Positions 3,476 through 39,400 of a DNA stretch of 64,000 nt are shown here, piece by piece. This stretch comes from a virus (Duplodnaviria > Caudoviricetes). The notes below the pieces were generated by a model. The model was given only the letters and a program-made list of their open reading frames with translations. It ran no database searches and was not told the origin of the DNA. The position numbers and the translations under genes were made by a program. Numbering within the stretch: position 1 is the first letter of the stretch; each line of letters starts with the position of its first letter. Where the stretch lies: positions 1 through 64,000 of IMG/VR virus record IMGVR_UViG_3300048575_000392, one strand, 5' to 3'.

Positions 3476-3480
3476 TTCCA

Positions 3481-3923: not shown

Positions 3924-3938
3924 CGCGGCTACGCCGCG
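3924..3938 (-). promoter_or_regulatory. DGR target-recognition hairpin/cruciform downstream of VR
   Basis: CGCGGC-GTA-GCCGCG, a 6-bp GC stem with a GNA loop, immediately 3' of the end of TR/VR identity. Confidence 0.7.
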
Positions 3939-5122: not shown

Positions 5123-5134
5123 GCTGCCTTCTCC

Positions 5135-5404
5135 TTAAAGGTTCCCAATCATGGACGCGATCTCGTCGTCCGTGAGCCCCGAGAGAACGAAGGCGGAATT
5201 CGGGTCCGTCTTCGCCTCGAAATCGTCCGGCGTCTGCTCCTCCGCCGACTTCTTCACGCCAGCCTTGAGCACGAGCATCGTCTTCGTGGCGTTGAGGGCC
5301 TCTAGGCGGGCCTTGAGCGCCTTGCTTCCGCCGTTGTTGATCGCGTACTGATAGGCGTTCAGCCAATCCTCGCGCGTGTTCATGTTGTCCGGTATTCCTA
5401 CCAT
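5135..5404 (-). CDS. Small fibre/receptor-binding-protein accessory protein
   Basis: 89-aa ORF with RBS between fibre and DGR target; function by position only. Confidence 0.5.
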   Translation of the reverse strand: MVGIPDNMNTREDWLNAYQYAINNGGSKALKARLEALNATKTMLVLKAGVKKSAEEQTPDDFEAKTDPNSAFVLSGLTDDEIASMIGNL

Positions 5405-5405
5405 C

Positions 5406-6563: not shown

Positions 6564-6565
6564 TT

Positions 6566-25083: not shown

Positions 25084-26562
25084 TTACATGGACTTGATGA
25101 GACGGAGCGTGCCGTCGTTGAGGGGCATGCCCTTGTTGAGCCGCTCCTCGATGATGGCTGCGTCCTGCGCCGTCATCTTGCCGCTCTGGACGGCCTGCAT
25201 GGACTTCTGGATGATCTCCTGACGGGTCATCGAGGTCTGCTTGCCGTCGGAGCCCACGAAACTGCGCTCCTGCTTGTTGACGACCGCCTGGCGGGGGGCC
25301 GGGGCATCGGCGAGGCTCTTCACGAGCTTGCCGGTGTTGACGAGGGCGCCTCCCATGGACTTCTGAAAGGCGACCATATCGCCCACGGACTTCTCGAGGG
25401 CGGACATCCGCCTGGAGATGCCCTTCGTGAGGTTGTCGAGGTACGGCGTCACGTCGAGGAAGTCGGCGGACGACTCCCGCATCTCGTCGTACAGGGACTT
25501 CTGCATCCCCTTCTTGGGAGCCTTCGCGGGGGCCCTGGCAGGCTCCTCGTGGGTCTCCTCCTCGCCCTCGCCGTCGAGGTCGTCCTTGTCGTCGTTGGCT
25601 TCGACGGCCTCTTCCGGGGGAAGCTCGGGGAAGCCATTGTCGGTCTCCTCCTCGCCCTCGGCCTCAGCCTTGCCCTTCTTGGGCGGATTCTTCATGGACT
25701 TTTCGAGAGTCGCGATGGACTCGTCGAATGCCTTCTCGAGTTCGGGGTCTTTCATAAGAACCTCCTCCTTGAACTTGTCTTTCTTGGAAAGTACGTCGCT
25801 CAGAATTGCCTTCGCCTCTTCGGGCGAGCATCCACGGTTCTTCAAGAGCTGTTCGGCTTCGTCTTCATCGCTCACGTCTCCGTAGGCCATGGCCATGACA
25901 ACGGCGTAAACATCGGGCTTGCGCCGCTTGCCGCCGTCCAAGTCGGACGGGATCATGGCCCGGCCTCCGGTCATCGCGGAGGAATCGGTTCCGAATCCCG
26001 CCTGAAGGGATTTCACGAACGCGGCGCTCGAGAGCGCCACGGGTTCGAGCGTTTGGTTGACCGGCTTGAAGGTGATCGCGAGCTCGTCCCACAGGACCTT
26101 CACGACCTTCTCGATCGCCTGGCCGATGCGAGAATCCCAGCCCGAGACCACCTCGGGCCGCTTGCCACCTACGGAGGTCTTCAGCCTCGTCGAGCCGTCC
26201 TTGAGCTTTTTCACGATCTCGCGGGCGATCGAGTTCGACTTGTAGAGCTTCGCCTTGACGAAAGTCCGGTCGCCCTCCGACCACACGTCGATGGGCTCTC
26301 CGATGATGTACTTTTCCGGGGACCAGTTCGGGTCCTCAGGGTCGGGGCGGAGGTGGCGATGGTCATAGGAGATGACGCCGTTCGCGAGGAAGTATTCCTT
26401 CGAGCCGAGAAGTGCACGCTGAAGCACGACCTGACCGTCGAAGTCCAGGTTCTCGTTCGACGCTTCGGCTTCGATGATCCAGTTGCCGTGTTCGTCGGTT
26501 TCGATGGCCTTCGACAGACTCAGTTCGAGGTAGACACGCTCTCCGAGCTCGATGTCGTCCAT
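25084..26562 (-). CDS. Prohead protease-scaffold fusion
   Basis: IIEAEASNENLDFDGQ, ISYDH, YIIGEP, TSVGG, LAIT..PVN protease motifs, then an acidic coiled-coil scaffold with repeated hydrophobic-x-KS; ATG at 26562 has an RBS. Confidence 0.88.
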   Translation of the reverse strand: MDDIELGERVYLELSLSKAIETDEHGNWIIEAEASNENLDFDGQVVLQRALLGSKEYFLANGVISYDHRHLRPDPEDPNWSPEKYIIGEPIDVWSEGDRTFVKAKLYKSNSIAREIVKKLKDGSTRLKTSVGGKRPEVVSGWDSRIGQAIEKVVKVLWDELAITFKPVNQTLEPVALSSAAFVKSLQAGFGTDSSAMTGGRAMIPSDLDGGKRRKPDVYAVVMAMAYGDVSDEDEAEQLLKNRGCSPEEAKAILSDVLSKKDKFKEEVLMKDPELEKAFDESIATLEKSMKNPPKKGKAEAEGEEETDNGFPELPPEEAVEANDDKDDLDGEGEEETHEEPARAPAKAPKKGMQKSLYDEMRESSADFLDVTPYLDNLTKGISRRMSALEKSVGDMVAFQKSMGGALVNTGKLVKSLADAPAPRQAVVNKQERSFVGSDGKQTSMTRQEIIQKSMQAVQSGKMTAQDAAIIEERLNKGMPLNDGTLRLIKSM

Positions 26563-26580
26563 GCGTCTCCATGGCGCGGA

Positions 26581-26635
26581 AAAACAAAAAGGGCCGCACG
26601 CCCCGAAGGGTATGCGGCCCGAGTCTTTCGGCACC
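26581..26635 (-). terminator. Conserved leader plus intrinsic terminator, copy 2 (before the head/tail operon)
   Basis: 49 bp identical to copy 1; U-tract TTTTTGTTTT. Confidence 0.85.
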
Positions 26636-26911: not shown

Positions 26912-27210
26912 GCTTCCCTCCATTCGCCATGCTCGAGCCAGCCGTGCCAGGTGTGTTTCGCGGTCCACTCCGGCGGTGAATTCGGATAGCCACCACGGCC
27001 CCAGAAGATCGAGGGGCTAACCGTGATCGTGCCGTCTTCATGTTCGGTAACGCTCCACGTCGAGACATCGGCGGTCAAAAGGAAGCCGTCGTCGTCACGC
27101 GGCACTGGGGCGGCGACCTGCCAATGGCCGTCCTTGTCCTTCCAATAGTTTCCGGGTTCAACGGGCGAGCTGGTGATATTTCCCGGATTCTCTATGCGTC
27201 GCCCCTTCAT
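26908..27210 (-). CDS. Small protein, DUF6527-like
   Basis: WSVTEHEDGTITVSPSI...WHGWLEHGEW pattern; ATGA overlaps at both ends. Confidence 0.5.
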   Translation of the reverse strand: MKGRRIENPGNITSSPVEPGNYWKDKDGHWQVAAPVPRDDDGFLLTADVSTWSVTEHEDGTITVSPSIFWGRGGYPNSPPEWTAKHTWHGWLEHGEWREA

Positions 27211-30200
27211 GCGGCCTTCTCCTTGTCGATCCCCTGATTGTAACGGTCCTGCCGAACGGCCGCGATCGTCGCCGCGAGGCCCGTGTCGTCGAGTACGCCG
27301 GGGTCCTCCTCGAAGATGCTCCCGATGGCTTTCTTGCGCTGGATGCGCTCCCACTTCTTCTTCTCGTGTTCCGTGTCGGACACGATGTCGTGGTACTCGA
27401 TCTCCTTGTGAGCCTGACCCATGCGGTCGATGCGGCCTTCGCGCTGTTGCTTCACCCACGAGGTCTGAGGCAGGTCGAAGTTCATGAGGTAGGCCGCGTT
27501 CTGAAGGTTGAGGCCCGTCGCGCCGGCATCCGAGCACAGGATGATGTCGTAGATTCGGTCTTTCGGGTTCGGGGGGTTGAACCCTACCTTGACCTTCTCC
27601 TTCTCGGCTCCGTTCATGCTGCCCTGGATGATCCCGACCCGGCATCCCTTCGCTTCGAGGGCGGCCCGGAGATTCTCCACGGTCTGGATGTTGTGGGCAA
27701 AGATGACACCGGGCTTCCGGTCGCCCGCTTGGCTTGCCGTCTTCGGGTTGGCCTCCTCGTAGACCTTCTTCTCGATGATGTCGACCGCCCGGCTGATCTT
27801 AGCGTTCTTCTTCCAGTCGAACTGGTTCACGACGCGGTTGAGCGCCTCCTCCTTGATCGTCCCGGAGGACTCCTGGAGGCGTCGCGCGATCTCCTCATGC
27901 TTCGCCTCGGGCTGATTCCTGAACGAGCTCGGGGAGAGCGCCCTCATGGCCTCCACGTCGACGGTGCCCGAGCGCTGCGCCTTGCTCGCGCGCTGGAACA
28001 TCGTCTCGACGTTGGCGTACTCGGCCGCCTGCTCCCCGGTGAGGGGGACGATTTCCTTCTTGGAGACCTTCTTGACCCCAGTCACGGTGGGACTCGCATA
28101 GTTGTAGCGCGAGATGAGCCGCTGTAGGGACCGGCGAGCGAAGTCCGAATCGACCCCGTACCGCTTGATGAACTCGTTCCGGTCGTTGAATCGGTCCGGA
28201 GCTACCTTGTGGAGCATGTCGAAGGCCTCTGAAATGTCGTTCTTGACCGGCGTGGCGGTCTGGTTCATGAAGTACGTGACATTCTGGTTCAGAGCATCGA
28301 TGACGTTCGAGAGCGTCGTGTCCTCTTTCCCCTTCCGGTTCGTCGTGTAGTGGGCCTCGTCCACGGTGAGCATGTCGAAGGCAATGCCCTCCTTCTTCAA
28401 TGCCTCGCCAAGCAGGCGTTGACGCTCCTCGGGCGACTGGGCATTGAAGTGAGCCTTCATCGCCTCCGGGTCCTTGTCGTTGTGCTTGGCCATAAGGTGC
28501 ACCATATCGTCCCGGAGGGACTGGTGCGTGAAGACCACCATATCGAGCTTTCCGTCCTTCATGGCCTGGATGCGATCGTCTCGGGAGAGCGAGGGGTCCG
28601 ACTTCACACGGTACTTTCCCGGCTCGCAGAAGACGTTCACCTCATTGCCGAACTGCGAAAGAACGACCGAGGGAACCGCGAAGATCGCACGTTTCGCCTT
28701 TCCCTTCGACTTCAGCTCCGTGAAGGCGCCGATCGAGATGATCGTCTTCCCTTTTCCGGTCCCGAAGGTGAGGTTCATCCTCTTCGTCGCCTCGAACATC
28801 TTGATGGCGCGCTGGCGCTCGCCCTTCGCCTGCATCGTGGACACGGCGTATCGCTGCCCGCGGAGCTGATTCCTAGACAGGTCGGGGATCATGGATGCGA
28901 GCTGGGTCTCCGCGCGCCTCCCGATCGAGAGAATCTCGGTTCCGTCGTCCTGCTTGAGGTCATCCCCGCCGAACATGTCGCCCTGGGCGGCCTCGGCGCG
29001 CTTCTTCTCCTCGATGTACTCCCCGAGCTTGTCTTTCCACGAGCCCGAGGCGAAGCGGCCGTTGGCCCGGTTCGCTAGCTCGCCTCCGGCCTCGCCCATC
29101 TCGCGCTTGAAGCGATCGGTGTAGGAGTCCCGGACATCCTTGTGGAGCATCCCGAGCACGTGATCCTGGGCGTTCCTGATCTTCTCGACCTTCGTGGCGA
29201 GCTTCTTCCCCGTCACCCTGCCGTAGTTTTTGATGAAGCGCTCTGTGAAATCCCCGCGGATGCGGTCGATGATGGCGGCCTGGGCCCGGTCGGTGTCTCC
29301 GTGCATCCGGGCATACTCACCCCAGGGACTCTTCTCCTGGCGGCTCTCTCCCGCGTTGAATTCCTCCTCGGTATGCCCGGACATCCACTTTAGGTAGTGG
29401 TCCTTCATCTGGCTCTGGTAGAGCTCTTCCAGCTTCCCAGGGAGCTCTCCCTCGAGCTTCTTCACCTCGCGCTCGGCCGCGGCCGCGTCCGTGACCATGG
29501 ACGGGTCGCGCAGGTCGTCGATCGCGTCGAAGAGCTCACGGGCTCCGTCCACATTCGCCCGATACGTCGCCCAGTTGCCGGGTACGACTCGAGCCAGAGG
29601 GGGGATGTCCTTCTCGCCGAACATGTCTTCCGTCGAGTGGTTCTCGATGAGGTCCTGACGGATCGCCGCGAAGGCTGCCTCCTCGCTTCCCCCGTTCTCC
29701 CCCTTGAGGAACTTCGCCCAAGCCCCCTGCCGGGACGCCGCCTTGCCCGTCGCGAGGTTCTGCCCTGACGTGGCCTCGGCCATGCTCCCCTTGTAGATGT
29801 TCCGCTCCCAGTACCGTCGGAGGTCGGTCTGATCCTGCGGGGTAAGGTCTTCCAGGAGCTTGAAGGCAAAGGCCCCTTCGGGCATCTCGCCGAGAGTCCG
29901 GTGAACGGCCTCCTCGGTCTTGTGGATCGCCTCCGCGTCGTCCCCGAGGCTCTGGTTGTCCACGTCTCCTGCCGGGGTTTCGGTGTCGGGGCCGGGGTCG
30001 TCGAAGCTCTCGGCGTCGCGACGGACGAGGCCCGCCGGCAGCCAGTTCTCCTCGTCGCGCTCCCCGGCCTTGATGGCGTCGACTTCCTCCTCGATCTGGA
30101 GCTCCTCGGCGTCGACCGGGTGGATGAGCTTGTCGGGGGTCTTGATCGTCACCACCTTGCTTCCGCCGACCGAATCGATGGCATAGTCGTCTTTCGACAG

Positions 30201-32174
30201 CCCGAGGGCGTGCATCCTGACGATCGCGTCCTCGTTCGAGATATCCCCGAGGTTGACCTCCAGGCTTTCCGGGTCTTTCGAGCCCTTGAGCTCCACAACC
30301 ATAGCCGCGGAGGCTTCGAGGCTCCCAAGGGCCTGGCCGATGATGCGATTCGCCTCATCGAGGTAGGAAAGCCGTGACTCGTTGAGCTCGGCCGCGGCCG
30401 CGAGGTCGGCGGGGTTGGCCGCGATCTCTTCCTTGATCGATTCGGCTCGCGCGAGGAGGTCCTTTCCCCTCTCGATGGCCTCGGAGGCGATGGTCTCGTT
30501 GACGGCTTCGTGGTAGCGCGCCATGCCCTCCGCGAAGGTCTTGTAGTCCTCCGTGGACATCGATCGGCGAGCCATCATCGCTAGGAGCTTCGAACTCGCC
30601 CCGACCCCGAGAAGGTCGACAGCATCGCGGTCGAGGCCTTCCGTCTTCATGGCTGCCAGGGCGATAGAGTTGAAACCGGAGTAGTTGCCGTTGGCTATCC
30701 ACTTCTCGGCGCCGCCGGGGTTCTTCGCGATCGCGTCGAGAAGGGAGGAGTGAACGGTCGCCTGGCGCTCCGTCTTGATTCTCTCAGCCTCGCTCTCGAG
30801 GTCGGCGTCCAGGAGCTCGTGGAAGTCCAGCGTGACGCCCTTGCCGTAGGCGAGGTCCTCGACTGAATCGGCGGCTTCGTCGGCCGTCCCGTCGAGCTTG
30901 ATTTGGGTCCCGCCGTCCTTCTTCTTGTCGAGCTCGGCGAGCTTCTTCTTCATCTCCAGATAGTGCTTCAGGACCTCCGTCTTCTTGTCCACCTCGGCTA
31001 TTGGGGCGCGGGGCGTCTCCTCGCGCTCGTACATGTCGTTCTTGACGCCGTTGATCCGCCGGTTCGTCTCAATGCCGCGGGTGATCATGAAGGCCAGACT
31101 GGGGTTATCCTTTGCGATCTCGGCCATGCGCTCGGAGAACATCTCGTCCTTCTCCTGCTTCAAGGCCTCCTCGTCCAGACCGCCCTTCTTTTCGGCGCTC
31201 TCCCGGTATCCGGCCACGAAGCCCTTGCCGTGCCCGGAATTCTCCTTTTTGAGCACTTCCCCGGCGCCGGTGTCTCCGCCAAGGCCGGCCTCCACCTGCG
31301 CCCGCAGGTCCGCGTCGCCGATGAGCTCGCGCTGTATCTGCCTCACGGCATCCTTAGCTGAGGACATGAAGTTCGCCCTCTGGCTCTTGACGGCGCGCTC
31401 CTCGGCCTTCTTGTTGACTTCGAGCTCCTTCTCCAGCCGCTTCACGGCCACCTTGTCCCCGTCCTCCTCGGCCTGCGTCATCTCTTCGAGGAGGGCCTTC
31501 CGCGGCTGGGCGAAGTCTTCCTCGATCGGGGACGGGTCCCACCCCATGAGGTCGGCCATGTAGGAGGTGAAACCCTCTTCGGCCTCAGCTCGGGCCTTCT
31601 TTTCTTCCGCCACGGCCTGTTTTTGCAGATCCTTGGCTGCCTTCTTCTGGGACTTGTACTCCTTCCGCTCGTCGGCGCCCATGCGGGAGACTTCCTCTTG
31701 CTCTCGGAGCTTCTCCTCGAGCTGCTTCCGCTTCTTGTCTTCCTTCCGCTGCTCCATCGCCTGGGCGTACTCGTCCTTGCTCTTGATCTTGTTCAGCTTG
31801 AGCCCGTTGAGCTTGCCGCCGGCGCCGGCGATGACGTGGGCCGTCCCGCTGCCGGTATCCTGGATTAGGACCGGAGTCCCGTCTTCTGCCCCATTTGGAT
31901 GGACCGTGATCCACCGCGCACCCCGCGGAAGAGCCGCCTTCGCCTTCGGGGCGGCAGCCTGGCGCTCTCCTCCGGTTCCGGCGCCGATGGACTCGGCCTT
32001 CTGGAGGCGGATGTACTCCCGCGCCACGCGGAGCGACTTCTGCATGGTGAAATACTCGCGGATCGAGAGTTCGGTATACCCGTCGGGCTCTACGTCCAGG
32101 ACGCCGGACTTCCGAAGCTGTTCGAGCCCCTCGGGCCTGTATGCGTAGCTTTCGATTCTGTAGAACATGCTCAC
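27207..32174 (-). CDS. Giant (1655 aa) probable head-packaged protein with C-terminal SNF2/SF2 helicase-like domain
   Basis: FGTGKGKT, DEAH, TATPVKN, SDAGATGLNLQ, QREGRIDRMGQ; N-terminal WITVHPNG..PVLI..GAGGKLNG motif. Confidence 0.85.
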   Translation of the reverse strand: MSMFYRIESYAYRPEGLEQLRKSGVLDVEPDGYTELSIREYFTMQKSLRVAREYIRLQKAESIGAGTGGERQAAAPKAKAALPRGARWITVHPNGAEDGTPVLIQDTGSGTAHVIAGAGGKLNGLKLNKIKSKDEYAQAMEQRKEDKKRKQLEEKLREQEEVSRMGADERKEYKSQKKAAKDLQKQAVAEEKKARAEAEEGFTSYMADLMGWDPSPIEEDFAQPRKALLEEMTQAEEDGDKVAVKRLEKELEVNKKAEERAVKSQRANFMSSAKDAVRQIQRELIGDADLRAQVEAGLGGDTGAGEVLKKENSGHGKGFVAGYRESAEKKGGLDEEALKQEKDEMFSERMAEIAKDNPSLAFMITRGIETNRRINGVKNDMYEREETPRAPIAEVDKKTEVLKHYLEMKKKLAELDKKKDGGTQIKLDGTADEAADSVEDLAYGKGVTLDFHELLDADLESEAERIKTERQATVHSSLLDAIAKNPGGAEKWIANGNYSGFNSIALAAMKTEGLDRDAVDLLGVGASSKLLAMMARRSMSTEDYKTFAEGMARYHEAVNETIASEAIERGKDLLARAESIKEEIAANPADLAAAAELNESRLSYLDEANRIIGQALGSLEASAAMVVELKGSKDPESLEVNLGDISNEDAIVRMHALGLSKDDYAIDSVGGSKVVTIKTPDKLIHPVDAEELQIEEEVDAIKAGERDEENWLPAGLVRRDAESFDDPGPDTETPAGDVDNQSLGDDAEAIHKTEEAVHRTLGEMPEGAFAFKLLEDLTPQDQTDLRRYWERNIYKGSMAEATSGQNLATGKAASRQGAWAKFLKGENGGSEEAAFAAIRQDLIENHSTEDMFGEKDIPPLARVVPGNWATYRANVDGARELFDAIDDLRDPSMVTDAAAAEREVKKLEGELPGKLEELYQSQMKDHYLKWMSGHTEEEFNAGESRQEKSPWGEYARMHGDTDRAQAAIIDRIRGDFTERFIKNYGRVTGKKLATKVEKIRNAQDHVLGMLHKDVRDSYTDRFKREMGEAGGELANRANGRFASGSWKDKLGEYIEEKKRAEAAQGDMFGGDDLKQDDGTEILSIGRRAETQLASMIPDLSRNQLRGQRYAVSTMQAKGERQRAIKMFEATKRMNLTFGTGKGKTIISIGAFTELKSKGKAKRAIFAVPSVVLSQFGNEVNVFCEPGKYRVKSDPSLSRDDRIQAMKDGKLDMVVFTHQSLRDDMVHLMAKHNDKDPEAMKAHFNAQSPEERQRLLGEALKKEGIAFDMLTVDEAHYTTNRKGKEDTTLSNVIDALNQNVTYFMNQTATPVKNDISEAFDMLHKVAPDRFNDRNEFIKRYGVDSDFARRSLQRLISRYNYASPTVTGVKKVSKKEIVPLTGEQAAEYANVETMFQRASKAQRSGTVDVEAMRALSPSSFRNQPEAKHEEIARRLQESSGTIKEEALNRVVNQFDWKKNAKISRAVDIIEKKVYEEANPKTASQAGDRKPGVIFAHNIQTVENLRAALEAKGCRVGIIQGSMNGAEKEKVKVGFNPPNPKDRIYDIILCSDAGATGLNLQNAAYLMNFDLPQTSWVKQQREGRIDRMGQAHKEIEYHDIVSDTEHEKKKWERIQRKKAIGSIFEEDPGVLDDTGLAATIAAVRQDRYNQGIDKEKAA

Positions 32175-35100
32175 CTCACGATCAGCTTTTTGCCGTGATT
32201 CGCCTTCTTGAAGGCCTCTTCCTTGAACGCCTCGATGCTCGTCTCATCCATCCGGCCGAAGAATCCGGGCCGGTCATACTGTTTCAAGTAGGCCGCCTTG
32301 GCCTCCTCGGGGCCGTCGAAGCCGAACATGATCTTGTCCTCGTCGTAGTCCCCGGTCACCGGGTCGTTCTGATGGACCACGAAGACCTTCTCCGACTCGG
32401 TATCGGGGCCGATGTAGCAGTCGAGGTGGTCCTTATCCTTCCCGACGGTCCCTCGGATGTACCCGTAGTCGAAGTGCATCTTCGTTTCCCACTCGTGGCC
32501 GTCCTTGTCGACGCCGCGGCGGACGCTGCCCTTCCGGTTCTCGATGCTGATGTCCATGCCCTGGAGCGTCGTCCTGCCCTGGAGCTTATGCCCGCTCCAG
32601 GTCTCGGCCTTCTCTAGGCGGAGAGCCTTGAGGAGCTCGTCGTCCTCAACGAAGAAACGCTCGACGAGGGGGAGGACCTTCGCCTCGTAGACCTCCTGCT
32701 TGGGATGATTCCCGCGCTTGTTCCAGGTTTCCTGGTATTCGGCCTGGGCTTCGCGCTTCGTGGCGAAGAACTGCTCGAGCGCGCGGGCGAAGCACTCGCA
32801 GGTACGGTTCTGGTAATCCGAGGTCTGGGCCGTGGCCATGTTCGAGCGGAACGTCCGCGCGATCTGGCCGGGGAGCGAGGACCAATCGTCCGAGGCGTAA
32901 AAGTGGCGCCCTCCCCGCGTGCCGAGGTAGTTGTCCATGAAGTGCGCCCACTCGTGCGCGAGCGTGAACCCGAAGCCGGTTTCGCCGTTCTGCATGGTGA
33001 CGCCGATCGCATGATGGGCAGGAAAGTAGACGCCGGCCGCGTTCCGGGCGTGCATGAGCACCTTCCCGGAGTGGCTCACCTTGAGGCCGAAGCCTTTGGC
33101 CATGGAGGAGCGGTTCCCATAGATGCTGTATACCGCGTCCAGGGCGGTCTTGATGTCCTGGATCTCCTTCGTGTTGATCGCGTCGCCATTCTGGCGCTTC
33201 ACGAGCACGCCGTACTCGTCCAGGAGGTCCTTCCTCGTCCCCTTGTCGCCGTAGGCCGTCTCCTGCCCCTTGGCATAGGCGGAATAGTTCTCCTCGATCT
33301 GGATGTTCATGTCGGAGAGCTTCTGCTTCATGTCGACGACGGCCTCTCGGATAGGCTTCCACCTCGCCGAGCCCTGCACGTCGAGAAGGGCGGAGGCCAT
33401 GGAAAGCGTCGTCCTCATGGCCTTGTTCTCTCCGAGCATCCTCACGGAGGTCTTCTTGAGCCTCATGCCGGAATAGAGCTTCGCCTGCTTTTCGTCGTAC
33501 TCCTTCGCTCGGACCTTCGCCCGCTTCAGGTAGTAGTCCTGCATCGCAGCCAGGACATCGACCCCGACTCGGGCGTAAAGCACGCCCAAGGAAGCCTTCC
33601 CGTCGCCAAGGCGCACCATGTAGTCGCCGTCGCCGAGCTTCACGGCCTCGACGCGGTTCCCCGAGCTGTCGAAGTACCTGTCGTCGATTCGGGGTATCCA
33701 GCCAGGCGCGGGCTTCCCCAGAATATCCTTCTCGGAGGCGAGGCTGATCTTGACGGGGATCGCATCCCGGAAGTCGAGGTACTCCACCTTGTCGCCCTTC
33801 ACGCGCCGCGGCTCGAAGGTGTAGGGCTCCGGAGGCCGCTCCTCCAGCTTCGCGCCGAAGAGCTGGGCCTCGGTGGCGGCCCGCGTCTCGGGCGAGGCCT
33901 TGGCCATGAGGGCGGCCACTTTGTCGGGTTCCCTCTCAGGGATAATCTCCTTGATGTCCTCGGGCTTCACGGCGAGCATCTCCCTGTCCGCGAGGACGTG
34001 GGACACGCCGCCGGCGAAGTAGCTGATCTTCCCGATGGCCTTCTTACCGTTCTTCCCCTTGAACGACACCTTGGCGCCGTTCTTGAGCTGGGCGAGGAGC
34101 TTCTGGCGCCAGAGGGCCTCCTCGACCTCCGCCTCGGCGAACATGTCGAACTGCACCCCGAGGGGGGTGTCTTTCTTGGCCTCCGCGGGAAGGACCCACA
34201 CGGTCGTCTCGAAGCGCGTCCCGTCCCTCGTCACGAAGACCTTCTTCGGTACCAGCTTCGGGTTCCTGCGCGATTTCTCCAGCATGGGGATGATGAAAAG
34301 GGCCTTCCTGAGCGACTCCGACTCTTGCAAGTCGCTATTAGCGGCGGTATACTCTGAGGTGGAGGGTCTGGAAATGCCTAACATCGAATCCAAAGACATG
34401 GACTTCTTCGAGCGCGAGGACGTGCCCTTCGCCCGCGACAACGCCTCCCGGAAGTGCTTCCGCGTCTTCTCCGACAGCTCCTTGAAGGAATCCCCGATCA
34501 CCCTCGCCGACTTGATGGTGAACGGCCGCGCGATCTCGAAGGACGAGGCCCTGCGGTTGGCGAAAGCCTCCGGAGACTGACTCGCCGCCCACGCTTCCTG
34601 ATACAGCGCTATCTGTGCGCCCCCGACCAATCGAGTGATCTTGTCGTTCTTCGGCTCATCCTTCAGCTCCCGCCACACCTCATAGAACACGTGCCCTTCG
34701 CTCTTGGCCTCGGCCATCGCCTTCGTGGTGAGCTGGACCTCGGATATCATCCCATTCGGTAGCTTCACGTTCATGTTGATGTCACGGTACCCGACCGGCG
34801 AAGGCGTGGCGAAGTTGTTCTTCAGTCTCATCACCCGCGGGTCCGCCATGAAGAACTCCACGGCGGCCGCCATGGATTCCAGCCCGTCGAATATCAGGGT
34901 ATGGCCGTCGAAGTCGTAGACCTGGGAGGCGTCGGGGGCGCAGTCCTCGCGCATCTTCTCCTCAACGCGGCCGCGGTCCTTCAGCTTGTCCCGAGACTGC
35001 ACTTCGAGGGCCCCGAGCTTCTTCGCGGCCTCTTCGACGGAGGCCTTGAACCCCGCCCTGGCGTCCTCCGCGAGGCGGTAGAGCTCCTCGATATCCTTGG

Positions 35101-36016
35101 AGGGCTGCACGAGGTTCTTCTTGTCGATTCTCTTCTGGTAGTCCGGGTCGAGAAGATGCTCCACCTGTTCCGATGAATGCCGAGGGGAGGAGGCCTCTTC
35201 GCCCGCCGGCCGCCGCGGGGTGGCCTCCTCGTCTCCAGGGCGGACGTAGCGCATCTGCTTGACGATGGCCCCGTCCTTTCGATGCACGTCGACGGCCCGC
35301 CGGACCAAGCGGGAGAGGTCACGCGCTTTCGCGAGGATAGGAACCGCGAGGAGCGCCGACATCGCCTTCTTGAGTCCGAGCCTCTTCGCCGATTCGATGG
35401 CCGCCGGCTCGTCAACCAGGCCAGCCTCGATGAGCTTCTTGTAGTAGTCGGGATCTTCCTTGAGGTGGTCCTCGGCGATCTTGCGGGCCTCCGCGCGGCC
35501 TTCGTGGTGCTCCATCTCGACCTTGATACCCACAGCCAGCTCGGGGTTATGGGTTTCGGCTACACCGAGGAGCTCCTTTTCCGTCAAAAGGCCCGCCGAG
35601 GATACTGCCTTCCACACGGGGCTCGATTTCTGAATGACGAGCTTCTTCGCGACTTCCCTGCGCTCCGTCCTGGCCTGGGGCCGAACCTCGTCGAACTTGG
35701 AAATGATCGCGAGCTTCCCGTCCTTGAGCCCTACGCCGAGGACTACTCCGCGCTGCCAGTCGCCACCGGCCTCGAAGTAGGCGATGTCCTTCCCGTAGCG
35801 GATAAGCTCGCAGTTCTCGAGGTCGAGCCCCTGAGGGAATCCATCCAGGTCTTTCAGCTTGCTCTTGTTGCCGTAGATGTCGATCTTCCCATCTTCCCCC
35901 GCGAACAGCTTCATGAAGGCCGCGTAGAATCGGCTATCCAGTCCTCCCTCGGGGATCGATTTCGCTACGAGGCTCTCCTCGTTGTCGGTGTTCTTCCTGA
36001 TATACAATCCGGGCAT
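32171..36016 (-). CDS. Polyvalent protein: DUF5661-like + RelA/SpoT-like nucleotidyltransferase + KOW-like + zincin/LPD1-like + inorganic-pyrophosphatase-like domains
   Basis: EMEH..ARKIAEDHLKEDPDYYKKL; KDRGRVEEK/DFDG/GYRDIN/EVQLTT; AHEWAH and ECFARALEQ; ISIENRKGS..DYGYIRGT.GKDKDHLD..DEDK. Confidence 0.82.
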   Translation of the reverse strand: MPGLYIRKNTDNEESLVAKSIPEGGLDSRFYAAFMKLFAGEDGKIDIYGNKSKLKDLDGFPQGLDLENCELIRYGKDIAYFEAGGDWQRGVVLGVGLKDGKLAIISKFDEVRPQARTERREVAKKLVIQKSSPVWKAVSSAGLLTEKELLGVAETHNPELAVGIKVEMEHHEGRAEARKIAEDHLKEDPDYYKKLIEAGLVDEPAAIESAKRLGLKKAMSALLAVPILAKARDLSRLVRRAVDVHRKDGAIVKQMRYVRPGDEEATPRRPAGEEASSPRHSSEQVEHLLDPDYQKRIDKKNLVQPSKDIEELYRLAEDARAGFKASVEEAAKKLGALEVQSRDKLKDRGRVEEKMREDCAPDASQVYDFDGHTLIFDGLESMAAAVEFFMADPRVMRLKNNFATPSPVGYRDINMNVKLPNGMISEVQLTTKAMAEAKSEGHVFYEVWRELKDEPKNDKITRLVGGAQIALYQEAWAASQSPEAFANRRASSFEIARPFTIKSARVIGDSFKELSEKTRKHFREALSRAKGTSSRSKKSMSLDSMLGISRPSTSEYTAANSDLQESESLRKALFIIPMLEKSRRNPKLVPKKVFVTRDGTRFETTVWVLPAEAKKDTPLGVQFDMFAEAEVEEALWRQKLLAQLKNGAKVSFKGKNGKKAIGKISYFAGGVSHVLADREMLAVKPEDIKEIIPEREPDKVAALMAKASPETRAATEAQLFGAKLEERPPEPYTFEPRRVKGDKVEYLDFRDAIPVKISLASEKDILGKPAPGWIPRIDDRYFDSSGNRVEAVKLGDGDYMVRLGDGKASLGVLYARVGVDVLAAMQDYYLKRAKVRAKEYDEKQAKLYSGMRLKKTSVRMLGENKAMRTTLSMASALLDVQGSARWKPIREAVVDMKQKLSDMNIQIEENYSAYAKGQETAYGDKGTRKDLLDEYGVLVKRQNGDAINTKEIQDIKTALDAVYSIYGNRSSMAKGFGLKVSHSGKVLMHARNAAGVYFPAHHAIGVTMQNGETGFGFTLAHEWAHFMDNYLGTRGGRHFYASDDWSSLPGQIARTFRSNMATAQTSDYQNRTCECFARALEQFFATKREAQAEYQETWNKRGNHPKQEVYEAKVLPLVERFFVEDDELLKALRLEKAETWSGHKLQGRTTLQGMDISIENRKGSVRRGVDKDGHEWETKMHFDYGYIRGTVGKDKDHLDCYIGPDTESEKVFVVHQNDPVTGDYDEDKIMFGFDGPEEAKAAYLKQYDRPGFFGRMDETSIEAFKEEAFKKANHGKKLIVR
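34325..34353 (+). promoter_or_regulatory. Near-consensus sigma70 promoter antisense to the polyvalent gene
   Basis: TTGCAA (34325-30) - 17 nt - TATACT (34348-53); GGAGG at 34361-65, 8 nt before the ATG. Confidence 0.8.
34374..34580 (+). CDS. 68-aa gene nested antisense within the polyvalent gene; candidate immunity protein for the adjacent RelA/SpoT-like domain
   Basis: Promoter + RBS + ATG; normal acidic composition (MPNIESKDMDFFEREDVPFARD...KDEALRLAKASGD) while the host frame becomes Ser/Arg-rich over exactly this interval. Confidence 0.75.
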   Translation: MPNIESKDMDFFEREDVPFARDNASRKCFRVFSDSSLKESPITLADLMVNGRAISKDEALRLAKASGD

Positions 36017-36086
36017 ATTGGCCTCCGTGCACGTTCGGTAATAGGTTTTTTCTATGGCTCGGGCGCCCCAGCGGCGCCCGGCCTAT

Positions 36087-36470
36087 TCAGAATCCCGCGT
36101 TCTCGTCGAAAAGCGTATAGGAATGGTCGACCCCCTCAGGATCGGTCCAGGAATGGTCGCTGACGTAGGCCTCTTGGCGGCCGTGGTAGTAGACCCCGGC
36201 CAGTACCGACCTGAAGAGGTCGCCGTGCCAGGCCCGCTCCTTCATGAGCTCATCGCTGTAGGGGCCCATGAACCACGCCGACTTGTCGGGGTAGAACTGC
36301 CGTAGTGCATCCTTCACGGCCCACCAGTAGACCCCGAAGCTCTTGTAGATGCGGCGGTTCTTCTTCAGCATGTCCCCGATGCTGAGGGCGATCTGCTTCA
36401 GGTACTCGTCACCGCCCGGAACGCGGAGCTTGTTGACGAGGCCATCCACGAATTCATTGTCGTAGAACAT
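36087..36470 (-). CDS. P1 Ulx-like small protein
   Basis: KKNRRIYKSFGVYWWAVKDAL resembles my recollection of P1 Ulx (LKNPRLYRSYGPYWPEIKKLL); adjacent to the DarB-like gene. Confidence 0.55.
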   Translation of the reverse strand: MFYDNEFVDGLVNKLRVPGGDEYLKQIALSIGDMLKKNRRIYKSFGVYWWAVKDALRQFYPDKSAWFMGPYSDELMKERAWHGDLFRSVLAGVYYHGRQEAYVSDHSWTDPEGVDHSYTLFDENAGF

Positions 36471-36473
36471 GCT

Positions 36474-39400
36474 TCAGCCCTCCTTTCTCATTATACCCAG
36501 TCGCGGACCATTCCGGTAGATCATGCGCATCGACTTCTCGACCTGCGGGCGCTTCCTGAACGCATAGCCCGCCCTTCCGCCGTAGGCGCGGTTGTACTCG
36601 ACCTCGTAGTCCGGGTTCATCTCGATGATGTCGTGGAGCTCATAGGCCGAGGCCCCGCGGACCCCGCGGCGCTTCATACGCTCCACGATGTCTTCCACGG
36701 GCTTCCAATAGGTCGAGGCCATGGAGTCGATATACTCGGCCTCCTTGTGGGCCCGGTAGGCCTTCATGGCCGGCTCCTTGAGCGCCTCGGCGATGCCTGT
36801 CTGCTCGAAGACCGGATCGTTGATCGCGCCGCCATCCGCCTCAGCCTCGCCCGAGCGCACGGCCGCGACGATCCGCGCCCGGTCCTCAGCGACATAGGGG
36901 TTGAGCGCCTCCTTGATGTCTTTCTCGGAGAAGGACCATCCCTTCGAGGCGATCTCAACCTTCCCCTCGGCGTTGACCTTGCAGTACCGGGTCTCCCGGT
37001 CGGGCGAGAGCCGGAGCATATCCCGATAGCGGTCCCGCTTGAAGGCTTCCGCCTGGCCGGCGAAGTCCGCCGGGGCATAGAGAGACTTGAGGCCGGACAG
37101 GTCTTCCTTTGTCGGGCTCGCTACGTGCGTCCAGTGCTCCCCGCCGCCCTGCTTCCACTCGACCCAATCGGAAGTCCACCCGCTCCCCTCCTGGGAAGCG
37201 GGCTTCAGGAGCATCGTCTGCTTCTTGTGGTTGATGGTCATGGCGACGAAGGGGCCGCTCCTCATCATGAACACGTCGCCCGGCTTGTAGACCCGACGCT
37301 CCGCCTTGTCGTAGATGAAGTCGGGCGGGTTGTCCTTGAGGAGCTCGAGATTCTGAAATTCCGGGTTGCCTCTGAGGGCCTCTTCCATGTTGTAGAGCTT
37401 CCGGAGGCGGTTCTGGTACTGGACGGTGCCCTTGTCCCCCTCGAAGCCGCGGATCGAGCCCCGCATGAGGCTGAGGGCCGCGAGCGTCTCGTGGACCTTC
37501 TGGGCGTTCGCCTCCTTGATCTTGCCGGTCTTGATCTTCTCCATCTCCGCGCGCCGCTCGTTGGCCTTCTCCTTGTCGCCCCACTCTTCGGTGAGGGCGA
37601 GGAGGAGCTCGTCGGGATCTACGAAGGAGTCGTCGTTCGGGTTGGTGAAGACGTTGGACTTGGTGCGGAGAAGCTGGTCGATCCAGTTCGCCTTGTTCTG
37701 TACGAGGTTGACGGAGTAATTGTCGATCGTCCCCGCGGTGAGGTAGGTGTTGAGCGCCACGGATGCCTGCCTGTTCCCCTGGCGGTCGATACGGCCGTTC
37801 CTCTGGATGAAGTCCGACGGGCGGTAGGGGATGTCGAAGTGGTGAAGGGCAGCGCTGTTGTCCTGGAGGTTCACACCCTCGCCGAGGGTCGGCGTCGTCC
37901 CTATGATTACCTTGTACTTCCCCGCGTTGAAGCCATCGATCGCCGCCGACACCTCCTTCTCGAGCGCCGTGTCGCTCTTCTTCCCGCCGGCCTTCGTGAT
38001 GCCGTTCACCACGACGATCTCGGAGTCCTTGAATCCCTGTGCGACGAGGGCGGCCTTGATCTTGTCGTGCATGTTGAAAGAGCCGTCGCCTGAGAGGACG
38101 CGGTCGCAGAATACGACCTGCCCGCCTCCCGTCGCCTTGAAGCTCTCCATGGCGTTCTCAGCGAGCTTCGACAGCTTCGGGTTCTTCCACCCAGCGTACT
38201 TCGAGGGGTTGTAGAGCTCGAGGTCGAGCGAGGCCGTCCGCATCCGCGAGTAGAAGGTGAGGAAGCTCTGGCCGGGGTACTTCTCGGCCTTTTCGTCGTT
38301 CCCCAGGGCCTTGAATTCCTCGAGCTGGGCCGAGAGATCGCGAAGCACGCCCGTCTGGTCTTCCTGCATGGGGATGACGTTCGGGTTGTTGTTGGCCTTC
38401 GGCTTCGGGAGGCCGATCTTCGTGGGATCGTTCTGGAGGTCGGTGTACTTGAAGAACATGTCCTGGAGGGTCCGCAGGTTCTTGAATCCCTTGAGTACCT
38501 TCGCGTCTATGGTCTTGCCCGTGCCCCAGTCGCACTTCGGCTGCACCTCTATATCGGCGAAATTCCGGATGAAGTCGTCGATCGTCCTTATGTTCAGGCG
38601 GTCGAGCTCCTCCGGCGCGACGTGCATGAGCATGTTGTAGTATTCGAGCGGGCTGTTCGTGAGCGGCGTGGCGGTGAGAAGGAAGACGTTCTTGCCGTCA
38701 TGCCCCCGCCGGATGAACTCGCTCTTCTTGAACAGGCTCATGGCGCGGTCCGAGCGCCGACCGTCGTTCATCCCCGTATCGCGGGAGAGGCTCGAGCTGA
38801 AGAGGTTCTTGTAGTTGTGGGCCTCGTCCACGAACAGGGCATCGCAACCGAAGTCCTCGAAGTTGATGGTCTGGTTCGTCTTCCCGGCTTCGAGCTTCCC
38901 GCGAGCCGTCTCCTTGGCCTGCTCGATCTTTCGGGAGCTCTTCGCGGCCGCCTTGTCCATGATCTGGCCGGCTACGATGTCGTCGGTGATGCGCTGGTCC
39001 TCCTCGGGCCTAAGCTGTATCTCGGAGGCCGCGGACTCGGGAAGGACGATCACGTCGAAGTCCCCGTTCGCGAGCTCCTGGTACATCTTGTAGCGCTTCA
39101 CCTGGTTCGAGTATCCCTCCGTCTCGGGGTCCACGGCGCCCACCTTGAGGCCGGGCATGGCCTTGGCGATCTCCTTGATCCAGTCCTTCACCTTGTTGTT
39201 CGGGACCTGGACCATGGGCCGCTTGATCTTCCCCTCCTGCCGGAGGAGCCCGATCAGGCCGATCGCGGCAAGGGTCTTCCCGAAGCCCGTCCCGAGCGCC
39301 GTGATGCCCTTCCCGGCCCGGTAGAGGTGGTGGATGGACTGCCATTGATGCCCGCCCAGGACGATCTTGGGGCTCCATCCGTCGATTCTCACGGCGTAGG

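Follow-up and report, generated by a model that had tools for sequence, protein, structure and literature searches.

A Tas1/Apk-like toxin domain in a polyvalent protein of a phage head module, with an antisense candidate immunity gene nested in its reading frame

The head region of the provirus analysed here (the window, positions 1 to 64,000 of IMG/VR record IMGVR_UViG_3300048575_000392) encodes a polyvalent protein of which one module, on the evidence of sequence comparison and a structural model, is a RelA/SpoT-fold pyrophosphokinase of the Tas1/Apk clade with its catalytic residues intact. Comparison of related loci further indicates that an open reading frame on the opposite strand (34374-34580, plus strand), lying wholly inside the toxin-bearing gene, is a real gene, preceded by a promoter and a ribosome-binding site of its own, both conserved. 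Phage polyvalent proteins with RelA/SpoT domains have already been published; what is novel is the candidate immunity gene, antisense and dual-coded.

The locus is the head module of a myovirus-like provirus or prophage. On one strand, the genes for TerS, TerL, portal, MuF, a DarB-like protein, a Ulx-like protein, the polyvalent protein, a giant helicase, a protease-scaffold fusion, the MCP and the sheath follow in this order, and the Pfam and PHROG matches of its neighbours place the polyvalent ORF between MuF/DarB-like and protease/MCP. The features of this region, by window position, are:

32171-36016, minus strand: polyvalent protein gene (P0001), 1281 aa, one uninterrupted open frame
35627-35959, minus strand: N-terminal module (aa 20-130), after a short propeptide ending LVAK↓S (arrow, presumed cleavage position)
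35429-35542, minus strand: DUF5661 domain (aa 159-196; Pfam PF18905, 4e-08, 33.9 bits, above cut-off)
34547-35119, minus strand: Tas1/Apk-like RelA/SpoT synthetase domain (aa ~300-490; Pfam, PDB phmmer, family profile, AF2 and Foldseek)
32624-33778, minus strand: phrog_22901 region (aa 747-1131; PHROG, 1.2e-71)
32219-32581, minus strand: polyvalent-type inorganic pyrophosphatase, InPase (aa 1146-1266; Pfam PF18823, 2e-44)
36087-36470, minus strand: Ulx-like small protein, directly upstream of the polyvalent gene (phrog_1629, 8e-13)
36474-42383, minus strand: DarB-like methylase-helicase giant protein (Pfam N6_Mtase, SNF2 and Helicase_C; PHROG DarB-like)
42251-43534, minus strand: MuF, a separate gene
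25084-26634, minus strand: prohead protease-scaffold fusion, the presumed processing enzyme (phrog_1028 head maturation protease, 1.7e-16)

The minus-strand frame of 1281 aa that a sequence-only reading of the window had delimited was confirmed, and the same in-frame architecture was found in the full-length relatives P0003, P0153, P0004 and P0154. DUF5661, RelA/SpoT, an HExxH-bearing region and InPase lie together in this one ORF beside virion genes, which is the arrangement that characterises polyvalent proteins. The pyrophosphatase, a domain that the sequence-only reading named as typical of polyvalent proteins, is present, and it also matches the InPase part of the solved phage portal 9b41 (1.2e-19). 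A zincin-type HExxH motif, HEWAH (aa 1021-1025, window positions 32942-32956), lies within the phrog_22901 region, for which no Pfam family or peptidase match was obtained. The N-terminal module matched no family in Pfam or PHROG; it behaves as a movable cassette, since in the relative P0155 it is joined to the C-terminus of InPase through an ‘IRK↓S’ junction. The toxin lies within the head/cargo gene block, behind the DarB-like and Ulx-like genes, in the window and in L002, L004, L005, L006 and L018, and the last of these keeps the gene order but encodes the toxin (371 aa) and the InPase protein (846 aa) in two distinct genes. The Ulx-like gene precedes the toxin gene in every related locus and, elsewhere, its family comes after DarB-like proteins where the toxin is absent.

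The alarmone-synthetase-like domain had originally been proposed from four motifs, all of which are present (KDRGRVEEK, aa 346-354; YDFDGHT, 367-373; GYRDIN, 409-414; EVQLTT, 426-431; together spanning window positions 34724-34981), and the domain proved to have a RelA/SpoT fold of the toxin type in a polyvalent protein among head genes. Pfam RelA_SpoT (PF04607) matches aa 345-441 marginally, with 24.8 bits for the whole protein (below the 27-bit cut-off) and 28.1 bits for the excised domain (above it), and matches 18 of the 43 homologues, the best at 1.4e-10. By phmmer against PDB sequences the toxin domain matches Tas1 (3.6e-5), and when a profile of the family was compared with sequences of solved structures Tas1/Apk1 was found at 8e-25, followed by YwaC (2e-10), RelSeq (1e-9) and SaEAS (1e-8). 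Fold prediction, on which the sequence-only reading had staked the domain, returned the RelA/SpoT fold: the AF2 model has a pLDDT of 95.5 and a pTM of 0.89, and Foldseek gave 75 PDB matches at E <= 0.001, with SAS1/SAS2, Tas1, RelQ, Rel, RelA, SaEAS and CapRel at the top of those listed and with alarmone synthetases or toxSAS accounting for every match at E <= 1e-5. Since no PAAR or MuF domain was found in the polyvalent protein (Pfam, PHROG) and MuF is a separate gene, the protein is strictly neither an Apk1 nor an Apk2.

Judged by its residues, the toxin domain is apparently active. D368 (the catalytic Asp of syn2), E426 (the Glu of syn4), K344/K346/R350/K354 (the basic residues of syn1) and Y410 (the acceptor-stacking Tyr of syn3) align with counterparts in Tas1 and YwaC that are ATP-binding, Mg-binding or catalytic, and K346, K354, D368, Y410 and E426 are at least 90% conserved among the 43 homologues. 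The Arg of the usual DxxGxR motif is indeed replaced, by a Thr (T373) that is invariant in the closest relatives (DGHT in all five, bar one with DGAT), and the replacement, from which the sequence-only reading had suggested that specificity or activity may differ, is a signature of the Tas1/Apk clade (PMC12226406) and not a defect. Compared with (p)ppGpp makers, Thr stands for the syn2 Arg, Asn stands for the syn3 His and syn4 is without Arg, as in Apk2 and Tas1; the signature residues are GHT, DIN and LT here, RNT, GVN and VN in Tas1, and RYT, GxN and YH in Apk2 (PMC12226406). Position 4 of syn2 is Gly here and Arg in most of the family, in Tas1 and in Apk2.

The features of the nested gene, which lies opposite the tail of the toxin module, are:

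34374-34580, plus strand: antisense gene nested entirely within the polyvalent gene; its 68-aa product (P0231) is a candidate Tis1-like immunity protein
34376-34582, minus strand: sense-strand tail of the toxin module (aa 479-547), the mirror of the nested gene
34325-34353, plus strand: sigma-70-like promoter (TTGCAA-17-TATACT), after which come a GGAGG and the nested gene’s ATG

This promoter is the sole promoter-like site on either strand between 32171 and 36100. Its -35 box, 17-nt spacer and -10 box, together with the GGAGG, are kept upstream of the nested ORF in L004, L002, L003, L005, L006 and L021, the promoter having been checked in seven of the nine lineages in which the nested ORF is open and overlaps the toxin gene; the ATG is conserved in most of them. 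The nested frame contains no stop codon, against four to eight per 180 codons in the same frame of the catalytic domain. The substitution pattern also favours the antisense frame at the nested gene: over the tail stretch it is the better conserved frame in 13 of 15 lineage pairs, whereas over the catalytic domain the pattern is reversed and the sense frame is the better conserved in all 15. A free-standing homologue (P0233, 55% identical) occurs in at least 24 contigs of other prophages with the toxin not nearby, and there the nested gene’s own frame is intact while the mirror frame has decayed, with stop codons of which four fall inside the gene itself. To our knowledge, opposite-strand overlap of protein-coding genes has rarely been demonstrable in bacteria or phages, and because the free-standing copy with its decayed mirror frame serves as a natural control, the locus is among the cleaner candidates for antisense dual coding. 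Separately, the two frames share their third codon positions, so that similarity in one frame mirrors similarity in the other, and, given an immunity protein, the sense frame would be open by chance with a probability of 0.3-1.0 per lineage.

In structural modelling the nested protein looks like a candidate antidote, or immunity protein, for the toxin. Its AF2 model (pLDDT 86.3, pTM 0.73, from only eight sequences) had as its top Foldseek match among 350,542 chains 6ox6_B, which is Tis1 (prob 0.97, E 0.09, TM 0.49/0.45), the next matches having a prob of 0.2 or less. Since the best of 350,542 chains is thus the cognate inhibitor of the toxin’s closest solved relative, the match is unlikely to have arisen by chance. 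Tis1 blocks the acceptor site of Tas1. VIA-align superposed the model on Tis1 over 61 of 76 residues with an rmsd of 4.0 and a Z of 4.9, which is below the level that proves common ancestry and in a range where unrelated small beta-rich folds can match; Tis1 ranked second of 48,161 chains, tied with a fragmentary match, and was the sole full-length match. Sequence searches gave less: the window’s nested protein was not detected by Pfam Tis1_ImmP (PF24154), against which one relative reached E = 0.21 (12.2 bits, cut-off 27), and 6ox6_B was not retrieved in the A5 profile search of PDB sequences.

The sequence-only reading had noticed two copies of a leader motif flanking the toxin domain, and these are real, since they align with two more copies in the phage and with those of relatives. 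Three of the four are:

35231-35353, minus strand: leader copy 1 (aa 222-262; leader HMM E = 1.5e-18)
34181-34300, minus strand: leader copy 2 (aa 573-612), MLEK↓S (leader HMM E = 1.7e-21)
21213-21833, minus strand: 206-aa protein starting with a leader copy, MMAK↓S (leader HMM E = 3.1e-17)

The fourth lies near the N-terminus of the DarB-like giant protein (leader HMM E = 6.8e-18). Copy 1 has the pattern hydrophobic-P-x-x-x-K↓A, then a basic ‘LV..V.V.R.DG......V.P’ stretch, and can be aligned with the phage’s three other copies and, at their N-termini, with stand-alone relatives, while copy 2 is equally placed in the relatives P0003, P0153 and P0004. This leader of about 45 aa with its K↓[S/A] site begins stand-alone cargo genes in relatives (toxin, zeta-toxin, InPase and DarB-like) and recurs at internal junctions of the fused forms, the cassettes being shuffled at K↓S junctions among relatives. 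The remaining borders of the polyprotein carry a bare hydrophobic-x-Lys↓Ser/Ala site only. The protease-scaffold fusion itself contains 12 h-x-K-[SA] sites in 516 aa, and the recurrence of the motif is about 2-fold (loose pattern) to 5-fold (strict) above a rough estimate; our guess at the specificity of the protease, h-x-K-[SA], is made from this recurrence.

As a whole, we consider it reasonably probable that the gene encodes a head cargo polyprotein with a Tas1/Apk-type toxin, which is packaged under the guidance of its leader, cleaved, injected and countered by the nested inhibitor. The polyprotein joins five cassettes (the N-terminal module, DUF5661, the toxin module, the zincin-like region and InPase), its junctions at aa 222-262 and 573-612 bearing the leader with which the phage’s other presumed internal proteins begin. 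The leader would take the polyprotein into the prohead, where the prohead protease would cut after Lys, and cuts past K231 and K582 would free a toxin piece of about 350 aa, which is the size of the stand-alone toxins in relatives. Injected with the DNA, this piece would turn ATP (and ADP) into (p)ppApp in the new cell, so that ATP would be drained and purine synthesis blocked. Host polymerase would transcribe the nested gene, both in lysogens and from incoming DNA, and the inhibitor would protect lysogens and end the toxic pulse. We infer from context that the toxin is cut loose inside the head and injected when a cell is infected, namely from its place between MuF and the prohead protease, a leader in common with DarB-like cargo, the size match with stand-alone toxins and the orphan immunity genes in other prophages. 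The presence of orphan inhibitor copies in the early regions of other prophages suggests that toxins arriving in virions exert a genuine selective pressure, which would support the idea that such toxins act in the cell being infected.

The nested antisense immunity-like gene bears directly on the idea, raised in the sequence-only reading, that the toxin kills non-lysogens. It may also be observed that, by draining the ATP of its new host, a phage would seem to work against itself unless it delivers little toxin or makes the antidote quickly. One doubtful but specific extension is a self-limiting weapon, in which a few injected copies of the (p)ppApp synthetase would drain ATP within seconds and bring defences that need ATP to a standstill, for example type I restriction, which is also the target of the DarB-like and Ulx-like cargo. 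The antidote, on the opposite strand and with a host-type promoter, would be among the first products of the incoming genome and would switch the toxin off, so that infection proceeds; the same antidote would protect lysogens, and other prophages would have captured an orphan copy to shield their hosts. Toxin and antidote would be inseparable by recombination, since they are written in the same nucleotides.

As to the product, sequence comparison makes (p)ppApp the most likely, because a stand-alone homologue with 54% identity sits near a homologue of the (p)ppApp hydrolase Aph1: two genes upstream of it lies an HD protein that matches Aph1 (7smg) at 6e-35 and ppGpp hydrolases at 2e-8. Hydrolases of the Aph1 type have been reported not to cleave (p)ppGpp (PMC10083569). 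None was found in the 76-kb provirus record (estimated to be 87% complete), and in the literature Aph1 is variably present in Apk2 loci. That the toxin domain instead imposes a stringent-response-like shut-off on the newly infected cell appears unlikely. Clade membership alone cannot give the product, because the Apk1-like clade includes SaEAS, which makes both products and is among the Foldseek matches here, as well as VpEAS and AaEAS, which make only (p)ppGpp (PMC12691689); nor do motifs alone fix it, because swaps of the Apk2 syn motifs left specificity unswitched (PMC12226406). Against the shut-off reading stand the family profile, which is far nearer Tas1 than SaEAS, the link of a close relative to an Aph1-type hydrolase and the Asn-for-His and Thr-for-Arg signatures, which are those of A-specific enzymes. 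Far less probable still is a tRNA 3'-end pyrophosphokinase like CapRel, FaRel2 and PhRel2, which would halt translation without an ATP drain: CapRel is among the fold matches (TM 0.63-0.65 normalised to the query) and some phages encode a PhRel2-type toxSAS (PMC11782079), but sequence profiles group the domain with Tas1 and not with tRNA modifiers, an Aph1-like hydrolase is linked to a relative, and the associated small protein is Tis1-like and no pseudo-Zn-finger antitoxin, Tis1-type inhibitors being paired with makers of (pp)pApp and with nucleotide acceptors, and not with tRNA modifiers (PMC11782079).

Injection of the toxin and inhibition by the nested protein each have a competitor. The toxin might act where it is made, as a prophage addiction or abortive-infection module, or attack neighbours after release at lysis, in which case its place among the head genes would be incidental. 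A close homologue with a nested gene, an Aph1-like hydrolase and a Ulx-like gene lies, together with a type I R-M system next to it, in a spirochaete island where no head genes were seen, and the role of the MuF-fused Apk2 toxins is still unknown (PMC10083569); yet we think this improbable, since the toxin lies within the cargo block in the window and the five further loci named above, bears the leader common to cargo proteins, which the island copy retains, and is fused in frame to an InPase of a type also fused to portals (PMC5512222). Somewhat less likely again is that the plus-strand ORF is real but encodes something other than a toxin inhibitor (a regulator or superinfection-exclusion factor), or that its openness is a mere by-product of the sense strand. 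The failure of sequence searches to place the protein in Tis1_ImmP, a structural Z in the range of chance matches between small beta-rich folds, the coincident third codon positions and the readiness with which the sense frame would stay open by chance all lean that way. The by-product half is excluded by the free-standing homologue and by the conserved promoter and SD, and a protein with another function would have to explain why Tis1 is the best Foldseek match and why the nested gene accompanies the toxin in nine lineages.

Among known systems, the locus we read as head cargo with a nested inhibitor is nearest to Tas1/Apk1 with Tis1, the type VI secretion (T6SS) effector and immunity pair of Pseudomonas aeruginosa (PDB 6OX6). 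Its toxin domain finds its best sequence and profile match in Tas1, has the same fold and likewise carries Thr in syn2, Asn in syn3 and a residue other than Arg in syn4, while Tis1 is the best full-length structural match of the nested protein. Identity is low (about 22% for the toxin in the Foldseek alignment, 17-18% for the immunity protein), the PAAR domain and T6SS are absent, the presumed vehicle being the phage head, and the immunity gene lies antisense inside the toxin ORF and not downstream on the same strand. In operons of pore-forming colicins, an immunity gene of opposite orientation stands between the colicin and lysis genes and has its own constitutive promoter. There as here, immunity is transcribed against the toxin operon and can be expressed while that operon is silent; however, theirs is intergenic, whereas here the toxin frame crosses the reverse complement of the immunity gene and both strands are coding. 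Apk2 toxins, the (p)ppApp synthetases that temperate phages carry fused to MuF and for which IapK/Tis1-like and Aph1 proteins give immunity (PMC10083569, PMC12226406), appear on sequence and modelling to share with this locus a head-gene-associated (p)ppApp-type toxin with a Tis1-like inhibitor, and a relative of the window’s toxin has an Aph1-like hydrolase as Apk2 loci do. Here, by contrast, MuF has a gene of its own, the toxin sits as a cassette inside a five-module polyprotein and not at a C-terminus as an extension, Aph1 is absent from the provirus record and the immunity gene is nested and antisense.

The gene resembles the polyvalent proteins of Iyer et al. 2017 (PMC5512222) in being a multidomain effector beside virion genes; that paper names RelA/SpoT, InPase and a zincin-type peptidase among the typical domains, RelA/SpoT being reported in spirochaete and epsilonproteobacterial (pro)phages. 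Searching it by terms gave neither a shared N-terminal K↓[S/A] leader where cassettes meet nor any immunity gene to go with the RelA/SpoT domain. The signalling that Iyer et al. proposed was (p)ppGpp-like (PMC5512222), whereas the present evidence speaks for the (p)ppApp clade of Tas1/Apk. With the Dar system of phage P1 (DarB, Ulx), whose internal proteins are thought to be co-ejected with DNA against type I restriction (PMC12810830, PMC11437467), the locus shares a DarB-like methylase-helicase followed by a Ulx-like gene in the head region; P1 is without alarmone-synthetase cargo, and its proteins are not known to share the present leader.

Toxic (p)ppApp synthetases have become known only recently (Tas1 in 2019, Apk2 in 2023), and the literature openly calls their role in phages unknown (PMC10083569). 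The locus offers three testable handles: a tagged toxin cassette with probable cleavage sites, a relative whose neighbouring Aph1-type hydrolase ties the clade to (p)ppApp, and an antisense inhibitor-like gene inside the toxin frame with a promoter of its own. The shared leader, for its part, may be a practical marker for head-packaged cargo proteins in uncultured phages.

The provirus record is 76 kb long and the window covers its first 64 kb. The polyvalent gene and its listed neighbours in the window share one strand, and an additional open reading frame, preceded by a predicted promoter, is nested within the polyvalent gene on the opposite strand:

46894-42251, minus strand, small terminase, large terminase, portal and MuF-like protein
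36474-42383, minus strand, DarB-like methylase-helicase, 1969 aa
36087-36470, minus strand, Ulx-like protein, 127 aa
32171-36016, minus strand, polyvalent protein ORF, 1281 aa
34374-34580, plus strand, nested ORF, opposite the toxin strand
34325-34353, plus strand, promoter TTGCAA-17-TATACT, then GGAGG and the ATG of the nested gene
27207-32174, minus strand, SF2 helicase, 1655 aa
25084-26634, minus strand, protease-scaffold fusion
23653-25068, minus strand, major capsid protein
farther along, past the major capsid protein, minus strand, tail sheath
21213-21833, 206-aa protein beginning with the leader motif

Its neighbours, from the terminase to the tail sheath, place the polyvalent gene among the head or cargo genes of a myovirus-like prophage. 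A DNA search with the gene against deposited phage genomes returned one short and irrelevant match, and an NCBIfam search returned nothing useful. The relatives derive from Spirochaetota and Hydrogenedentes MAGs; L022, a related prophage on the same Hydrogenedentes contig as locus L002, has a capsid protein 58% identical to that of the window, which hints at the hosts that phages of this group may infect.

The sequence-only reading had placed four RelA/SpoT motifs in the polyvalent protein, and we located all of them, at aa 346-354, 367-373, 409-414 and 426-431. The Pfam RelA_SpoT model matches aa 345-441 marginally (cut-off 27 bits; the full-length protein scores 24.8 bits, the excised domain 28.1 bits), and the protein also contains an InPase domain (aa 1146-1266, 2e-44), DUF5661 (aa 159-196) and a HEWAH motif (aa 1021-1025) within a stretch that has a match at 1e-71 to a PHROG of unknown function. 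With aa 290-490 as query, a full HMMER scan over 1.84 billion representative proteins yielded 1762 relatives at E <= 0.001, carried by proteins that include small ones and giants of 2000-4600 aa, and a profile built from 43 relatives matched the Pseudomonas aeruginosa toxin Tas1 (6OX6) at 8e-25, far ahead of YwaC (2e-10), RelSeq (1e-9) and SaEAS (1e-8). The RelA/SpoT fold, which the earlier reading had made its test, is predicted: the AlphaFold model of the domain is very confident (pLDDT 95.5), and Foldseek pairs it with small alarmone synthetases, Tas1, Rel/RelA, SaEAS and CapRel. By alignment, the domain retains its predicted ATP-phosphate binders (K344, K346, R350 and K354) as well as D368 for Mg binding, Y410 for base stacking and E426 for catalysis, and K346, K354, D368, Y410 and E426 are each at least 90% conserved within the family. 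The same reading had also pointed to an altered DxxGxR motif (DFDGHT) that might affect specificity or activity; the Arg is indeed replaced, but not as a sign of decay, as DGHT is invariant in the closest relatives (one has DGAT) and Tas1 has Thr at the position of this syn2 Arg. The domain further has Asn for the syn3 His and lacks Arg in syn4, and this is the pattern by which Apk2 and Tas1, both specific for adenosine, differ from (p)ppGpp synthetases (PMC12226406). Overall, the head-region polyprotein of the window includes a synthetase cassette of the Tas1 type that is intact.

The promoter in front of the nested ORF is the sole promoter-like site on either strand within 32171-36100. With a profile of the nested product, we found it antisense to the toxin in loci L004, L005, L002, L003 (counted together with its near-identical copies L008-L013), L006, L018, L019 and L021, and toxin identity across the loci with the nested ORF falls from ~85% to 39%. 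The ORF starts with MP... in L018 and the first five loci inspected, and with ATG and a different second residue in L021; L019 has no nearby ATG. The -35/17-nt/-10 promoter and Shine-Dalgarno sequence were confirmed in L004, L005, L002, L003, L006 and L021, and L018 has only a -10-like box and a Shine-Dalgarno sequence upstream. Because the third codon positions of both frames coincide, sequence similarity cannot tell which frame is selected, and the catalytic domain was therefore run as a control. There, the sense frame had the higher BLOSUM score per site in 15/15 lineage pairs and the equivalent antisense frame contained 4-8 stops per ~180 codons. In the overlapped tail, the antisense frame scored higher in 13 of the 15 lineage pairs and contained zero stops in every lineage.

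The decisive result for the nested gene comes from a natural control, P0233, a free-standing gene whose 71-aa product is 55% identical to the nested protein (L023:5001-5216; loci L023-L025). This type, present on at least 24 contigs, lies in the early/lysogeny region of other, unrelated prophages, adjoining a cI-like repressor and near an integrase, with no toxin domain in the P0233 locus. On the strand opposite P0233, text resembling the toxin tail is recognisable but broken by stops, four of them within the gene itself. The small protein's frame is thus the one kept by selection, and the toxin 'tail' is largely its mirror image. In the fused proteins the overlapped stretch is dual-coding, because both frames must stay open there. 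When codons were resampled with the immunity protein fixed, the sense frame stayed open by chance at a rate of 0.3-1.0 per lineage, and therefore synonymous-site choice alone is no proof of selection on the sense tail. Judged by these comparisons, the nested ORF is a real antisense gene with its own promoter. On the viral contig L005 (10579-10980) two tandem immunity-like antisense ORFs lie past the toxin domain, the domain-proximal one interrupted by a stop and the distal one intact and divergent (40% identical), as if the immunity allele had been replaced or duplicated; the 1695-aa protein encoded there, P0004, also has a LAGLIDADG_3 match, possibly an intein or homing-endonuclease insertion.

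The fold predicted for the nested protein (pLDDT 86.3, pTM 0.73, from just eight sequences) had as its top Foldseek match among 350,542 PDB chains 6ox6_B, which is Tis1, the immunity protein of Tas1, at a probability of 0.97, the next match being at <=0.2. In a search independent of Foldseek, VIA-align ranked Tis1 second of 48,161 representatives, tied with a fragmentary match (Z 4.9, 61/76 residues aligned). The Pfam model Tis1_ImmP, run on the nested protein and its relatives as well as on three genomes, gave one weak match only, the nested-protein profile gave chance-level matches only against PDB sequences, and the ESM Atlas held no usable match to the nested protein. As modelled, its fold is most like that of the Tas1 inhibitor, and membership of Tis1 is unsupported by sequence models.

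The Ulx-like protein, whose gene precedes the toxin gene in every related locus, was our first idea for an inhibitor or chaperone of the toxin, and we largely rejected it because this family normally follows DarB-like genes without a toxin, in phages and in T4SS conjugative elements; the same order of DarB-like and Ulx-like genes occurs in P1 and Thermus Lalka phages (PMC11437467). Conjugative elements on three metagenome contigs (L014, L015 and L016) likewise have a Ulx-like gene after one for a DarB-like methylase-helicase or a polyvalent protein, with the genes for the T4SS coupling protein and VirB immediately downstream, which shows that DarB and Ulx also pair up outside phages. A mobile island in spirochaete MAG and metagenome contigs L008-L013 (~1200-9050) encodes a DUF5906 replication protein, a complete type I restriction-modification system (HsdM, HsdS, HsdR), an Aph1-like (p)ppApp hydrolase, a Ulx-like protein and a leader-bearing toxin that stands alone and contains the nested gene, then transposases, and may be a phage satellite borrowing capsids. 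Here the Ulx-like gene lies beside the toxin and the type I system without DarB. In locus L020, a toxin with 41% identity is followed on its own strand by a 76-aa ORF, which was considered as a conventional immunity gene and set aside, as it has no demonstrable similarity to the nested protein.

Clade membership is insufficient to call the product of the toxin domain, because certain Apk1-like exported enzymes produce (p)ppGpp (PMC12691689). A stand-alone toxin homologue, 54% identical, from Rectinema/Treponema MAGs is clustered with a Ulx-like protein and an HD protein, and the latter matches Aph1 (7smg), a (p)ppApp-specific hydrolase (PMC10083569), over its full length at 6e-35 and (p)ppGpp hydrolases only at 2e-8. 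Tis1-type inhibitors are reported to pair with (pp)pApp makers, and tRNA-modifying toxSAS use pseudo-zinc-finger antitoxins (PMC11782079). Because of the Aph1-like HD protein beside this homologue and the Tis1 likeness of the nested protein, we consider (p)ppApp the probable product; an Aph1-type hydrolase is absent from this 76-kb provirus record. Production of (p)ppGpp, or of both, has the Apk1-like enzymes as its precedent and the adenosine-type residue pattern against it, and is rather unlikely. Action on tRNA, as by the toxSAS with their different class of antitoxin, is very improbable, and the small share that is left falls to a domain that uses another acceptor or is inactive.

The sequence-only reading had placed the toxin domain between two copies of a leader motif, and both (aa 222-262 and 573-612) can be aligned to the beginning of the 206-aa protein as well as to the DarB-like N-terminus. 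In 8/8 aligned copies of this ~45-aa tag, a possible marker of head cargo, Lys followed by Ala or Ser occupies one column, ahead of a basic 'LV..V.V.R.(D/G)G......WV.P' stretch. In relatives the leader forms the N-terminus of separate genes, among them toxins (349-441 aa), a zeta-toxin protein, InPase and DarB-like proteins, and in fused giants it recurs at internal junctions. Locus L018 has the gene order of the window, yet its toxin (371 aa) and InPase protein (846 aa) are separate genes, and in the related protein P0155 the InPase C-terminus is joined to the N-module of the window protein through an 'IRK↓S' junction. The 1281-aa protein is therefore a fusion of cassettes, its two internal leader copies marking the joins of once-separate cargo genes. 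Two predicted cuts, one behind K231 and one behind K582, would release ~350 aa, as much as the separately encoded toxins contain; other candidate sites follow K19, K706 and K1136. Close to the N-terminus of the major capsid protein stands 'ELQK↓ALSAGYGTDS', its mature end being predicted after K25, and the protease-scaffold protein repeats a similar motif, with 12 h-x-K-[SA] sites; prohead protease cleavage after Lys and leader-driven capsid targeting are reasonable inferences. The capsid N-terminus ('ELQK↓ALSAGYGTDSAAMTGGRA') is almost duplicated within the protease-scaffold protein ('AFVK↓SLQAGFGTDSSAMTGGRA'), whose scaffold part is rich in h-x-K-S sites, which suggests a recognition element for the maturation protease shared by both. 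For the DarB-like ORF, the true start probably lies downstream of the listed GTG: the leader starts ~45 codons in, just past an internal Met (MNIFQRF...), and this Met as start would place it at the true N-terminus, matching other cargo proteins.

A 2017 study described phage-type polyvalent proteins with RelA/SpoT and InPase domains from spirochaete and epsilonproteobacterial (pro)phages (PMC5512222), and MuF-fused Apk2 toxins with Tis1-like and Aph1 immunity have been characterised (PMC10083569, PMC12226406). According to our literature searches, three features are new relative to these three papers: the cassette leader with its K↓S/A site, an inhibitor-like gene that is antisense, fully overlapped and has its own promoter, and orphan copies of that gene. 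Unlike Apk1, the window's toxin protein lacks PAAR, and in contrast to Apk2, MuF is a separate gene. In pore-forming colicin operons the immunity gene is oppositely oriented, without overlap. It may be the nearest analogy for the orientation of the nested gene, which in the window is overlapped.

We propose that the polyprotein would be packaged in the head via its leader, cleaved after Lys and the toxin co-injected with the phage DNA; in the recipient cell it would turn ATP into (p)ppApp. The nested protein would neutralise the toxin, being made from its host-type promoter in lysogens and probably also early from incoming DNA. That other prophages hold orphan inhibitor genes is as expected if the toxin arrives with incoming virions. 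Because the toxin gene adjoins DarB-like and Ulx-like anti-restriction cargo, one may speculate from its placement that briefly draining ATP helps against defences that depend on ATP.

In L017 (7411-8748), a related head-cargo block, a leader-bearing zeta-toxin kinase replaces the alarmone synthetase after the Ulx-like gene, and the protein P0008 has both a toxin domain of this family and zeta-toxin/AAA_33 matches. Toxin cassettes seem to be swapped at the position after the Ulx-like gene, a shared slot taken by either an alarmone synthetase or a zeta-toxin kinase in related cargo blocks.
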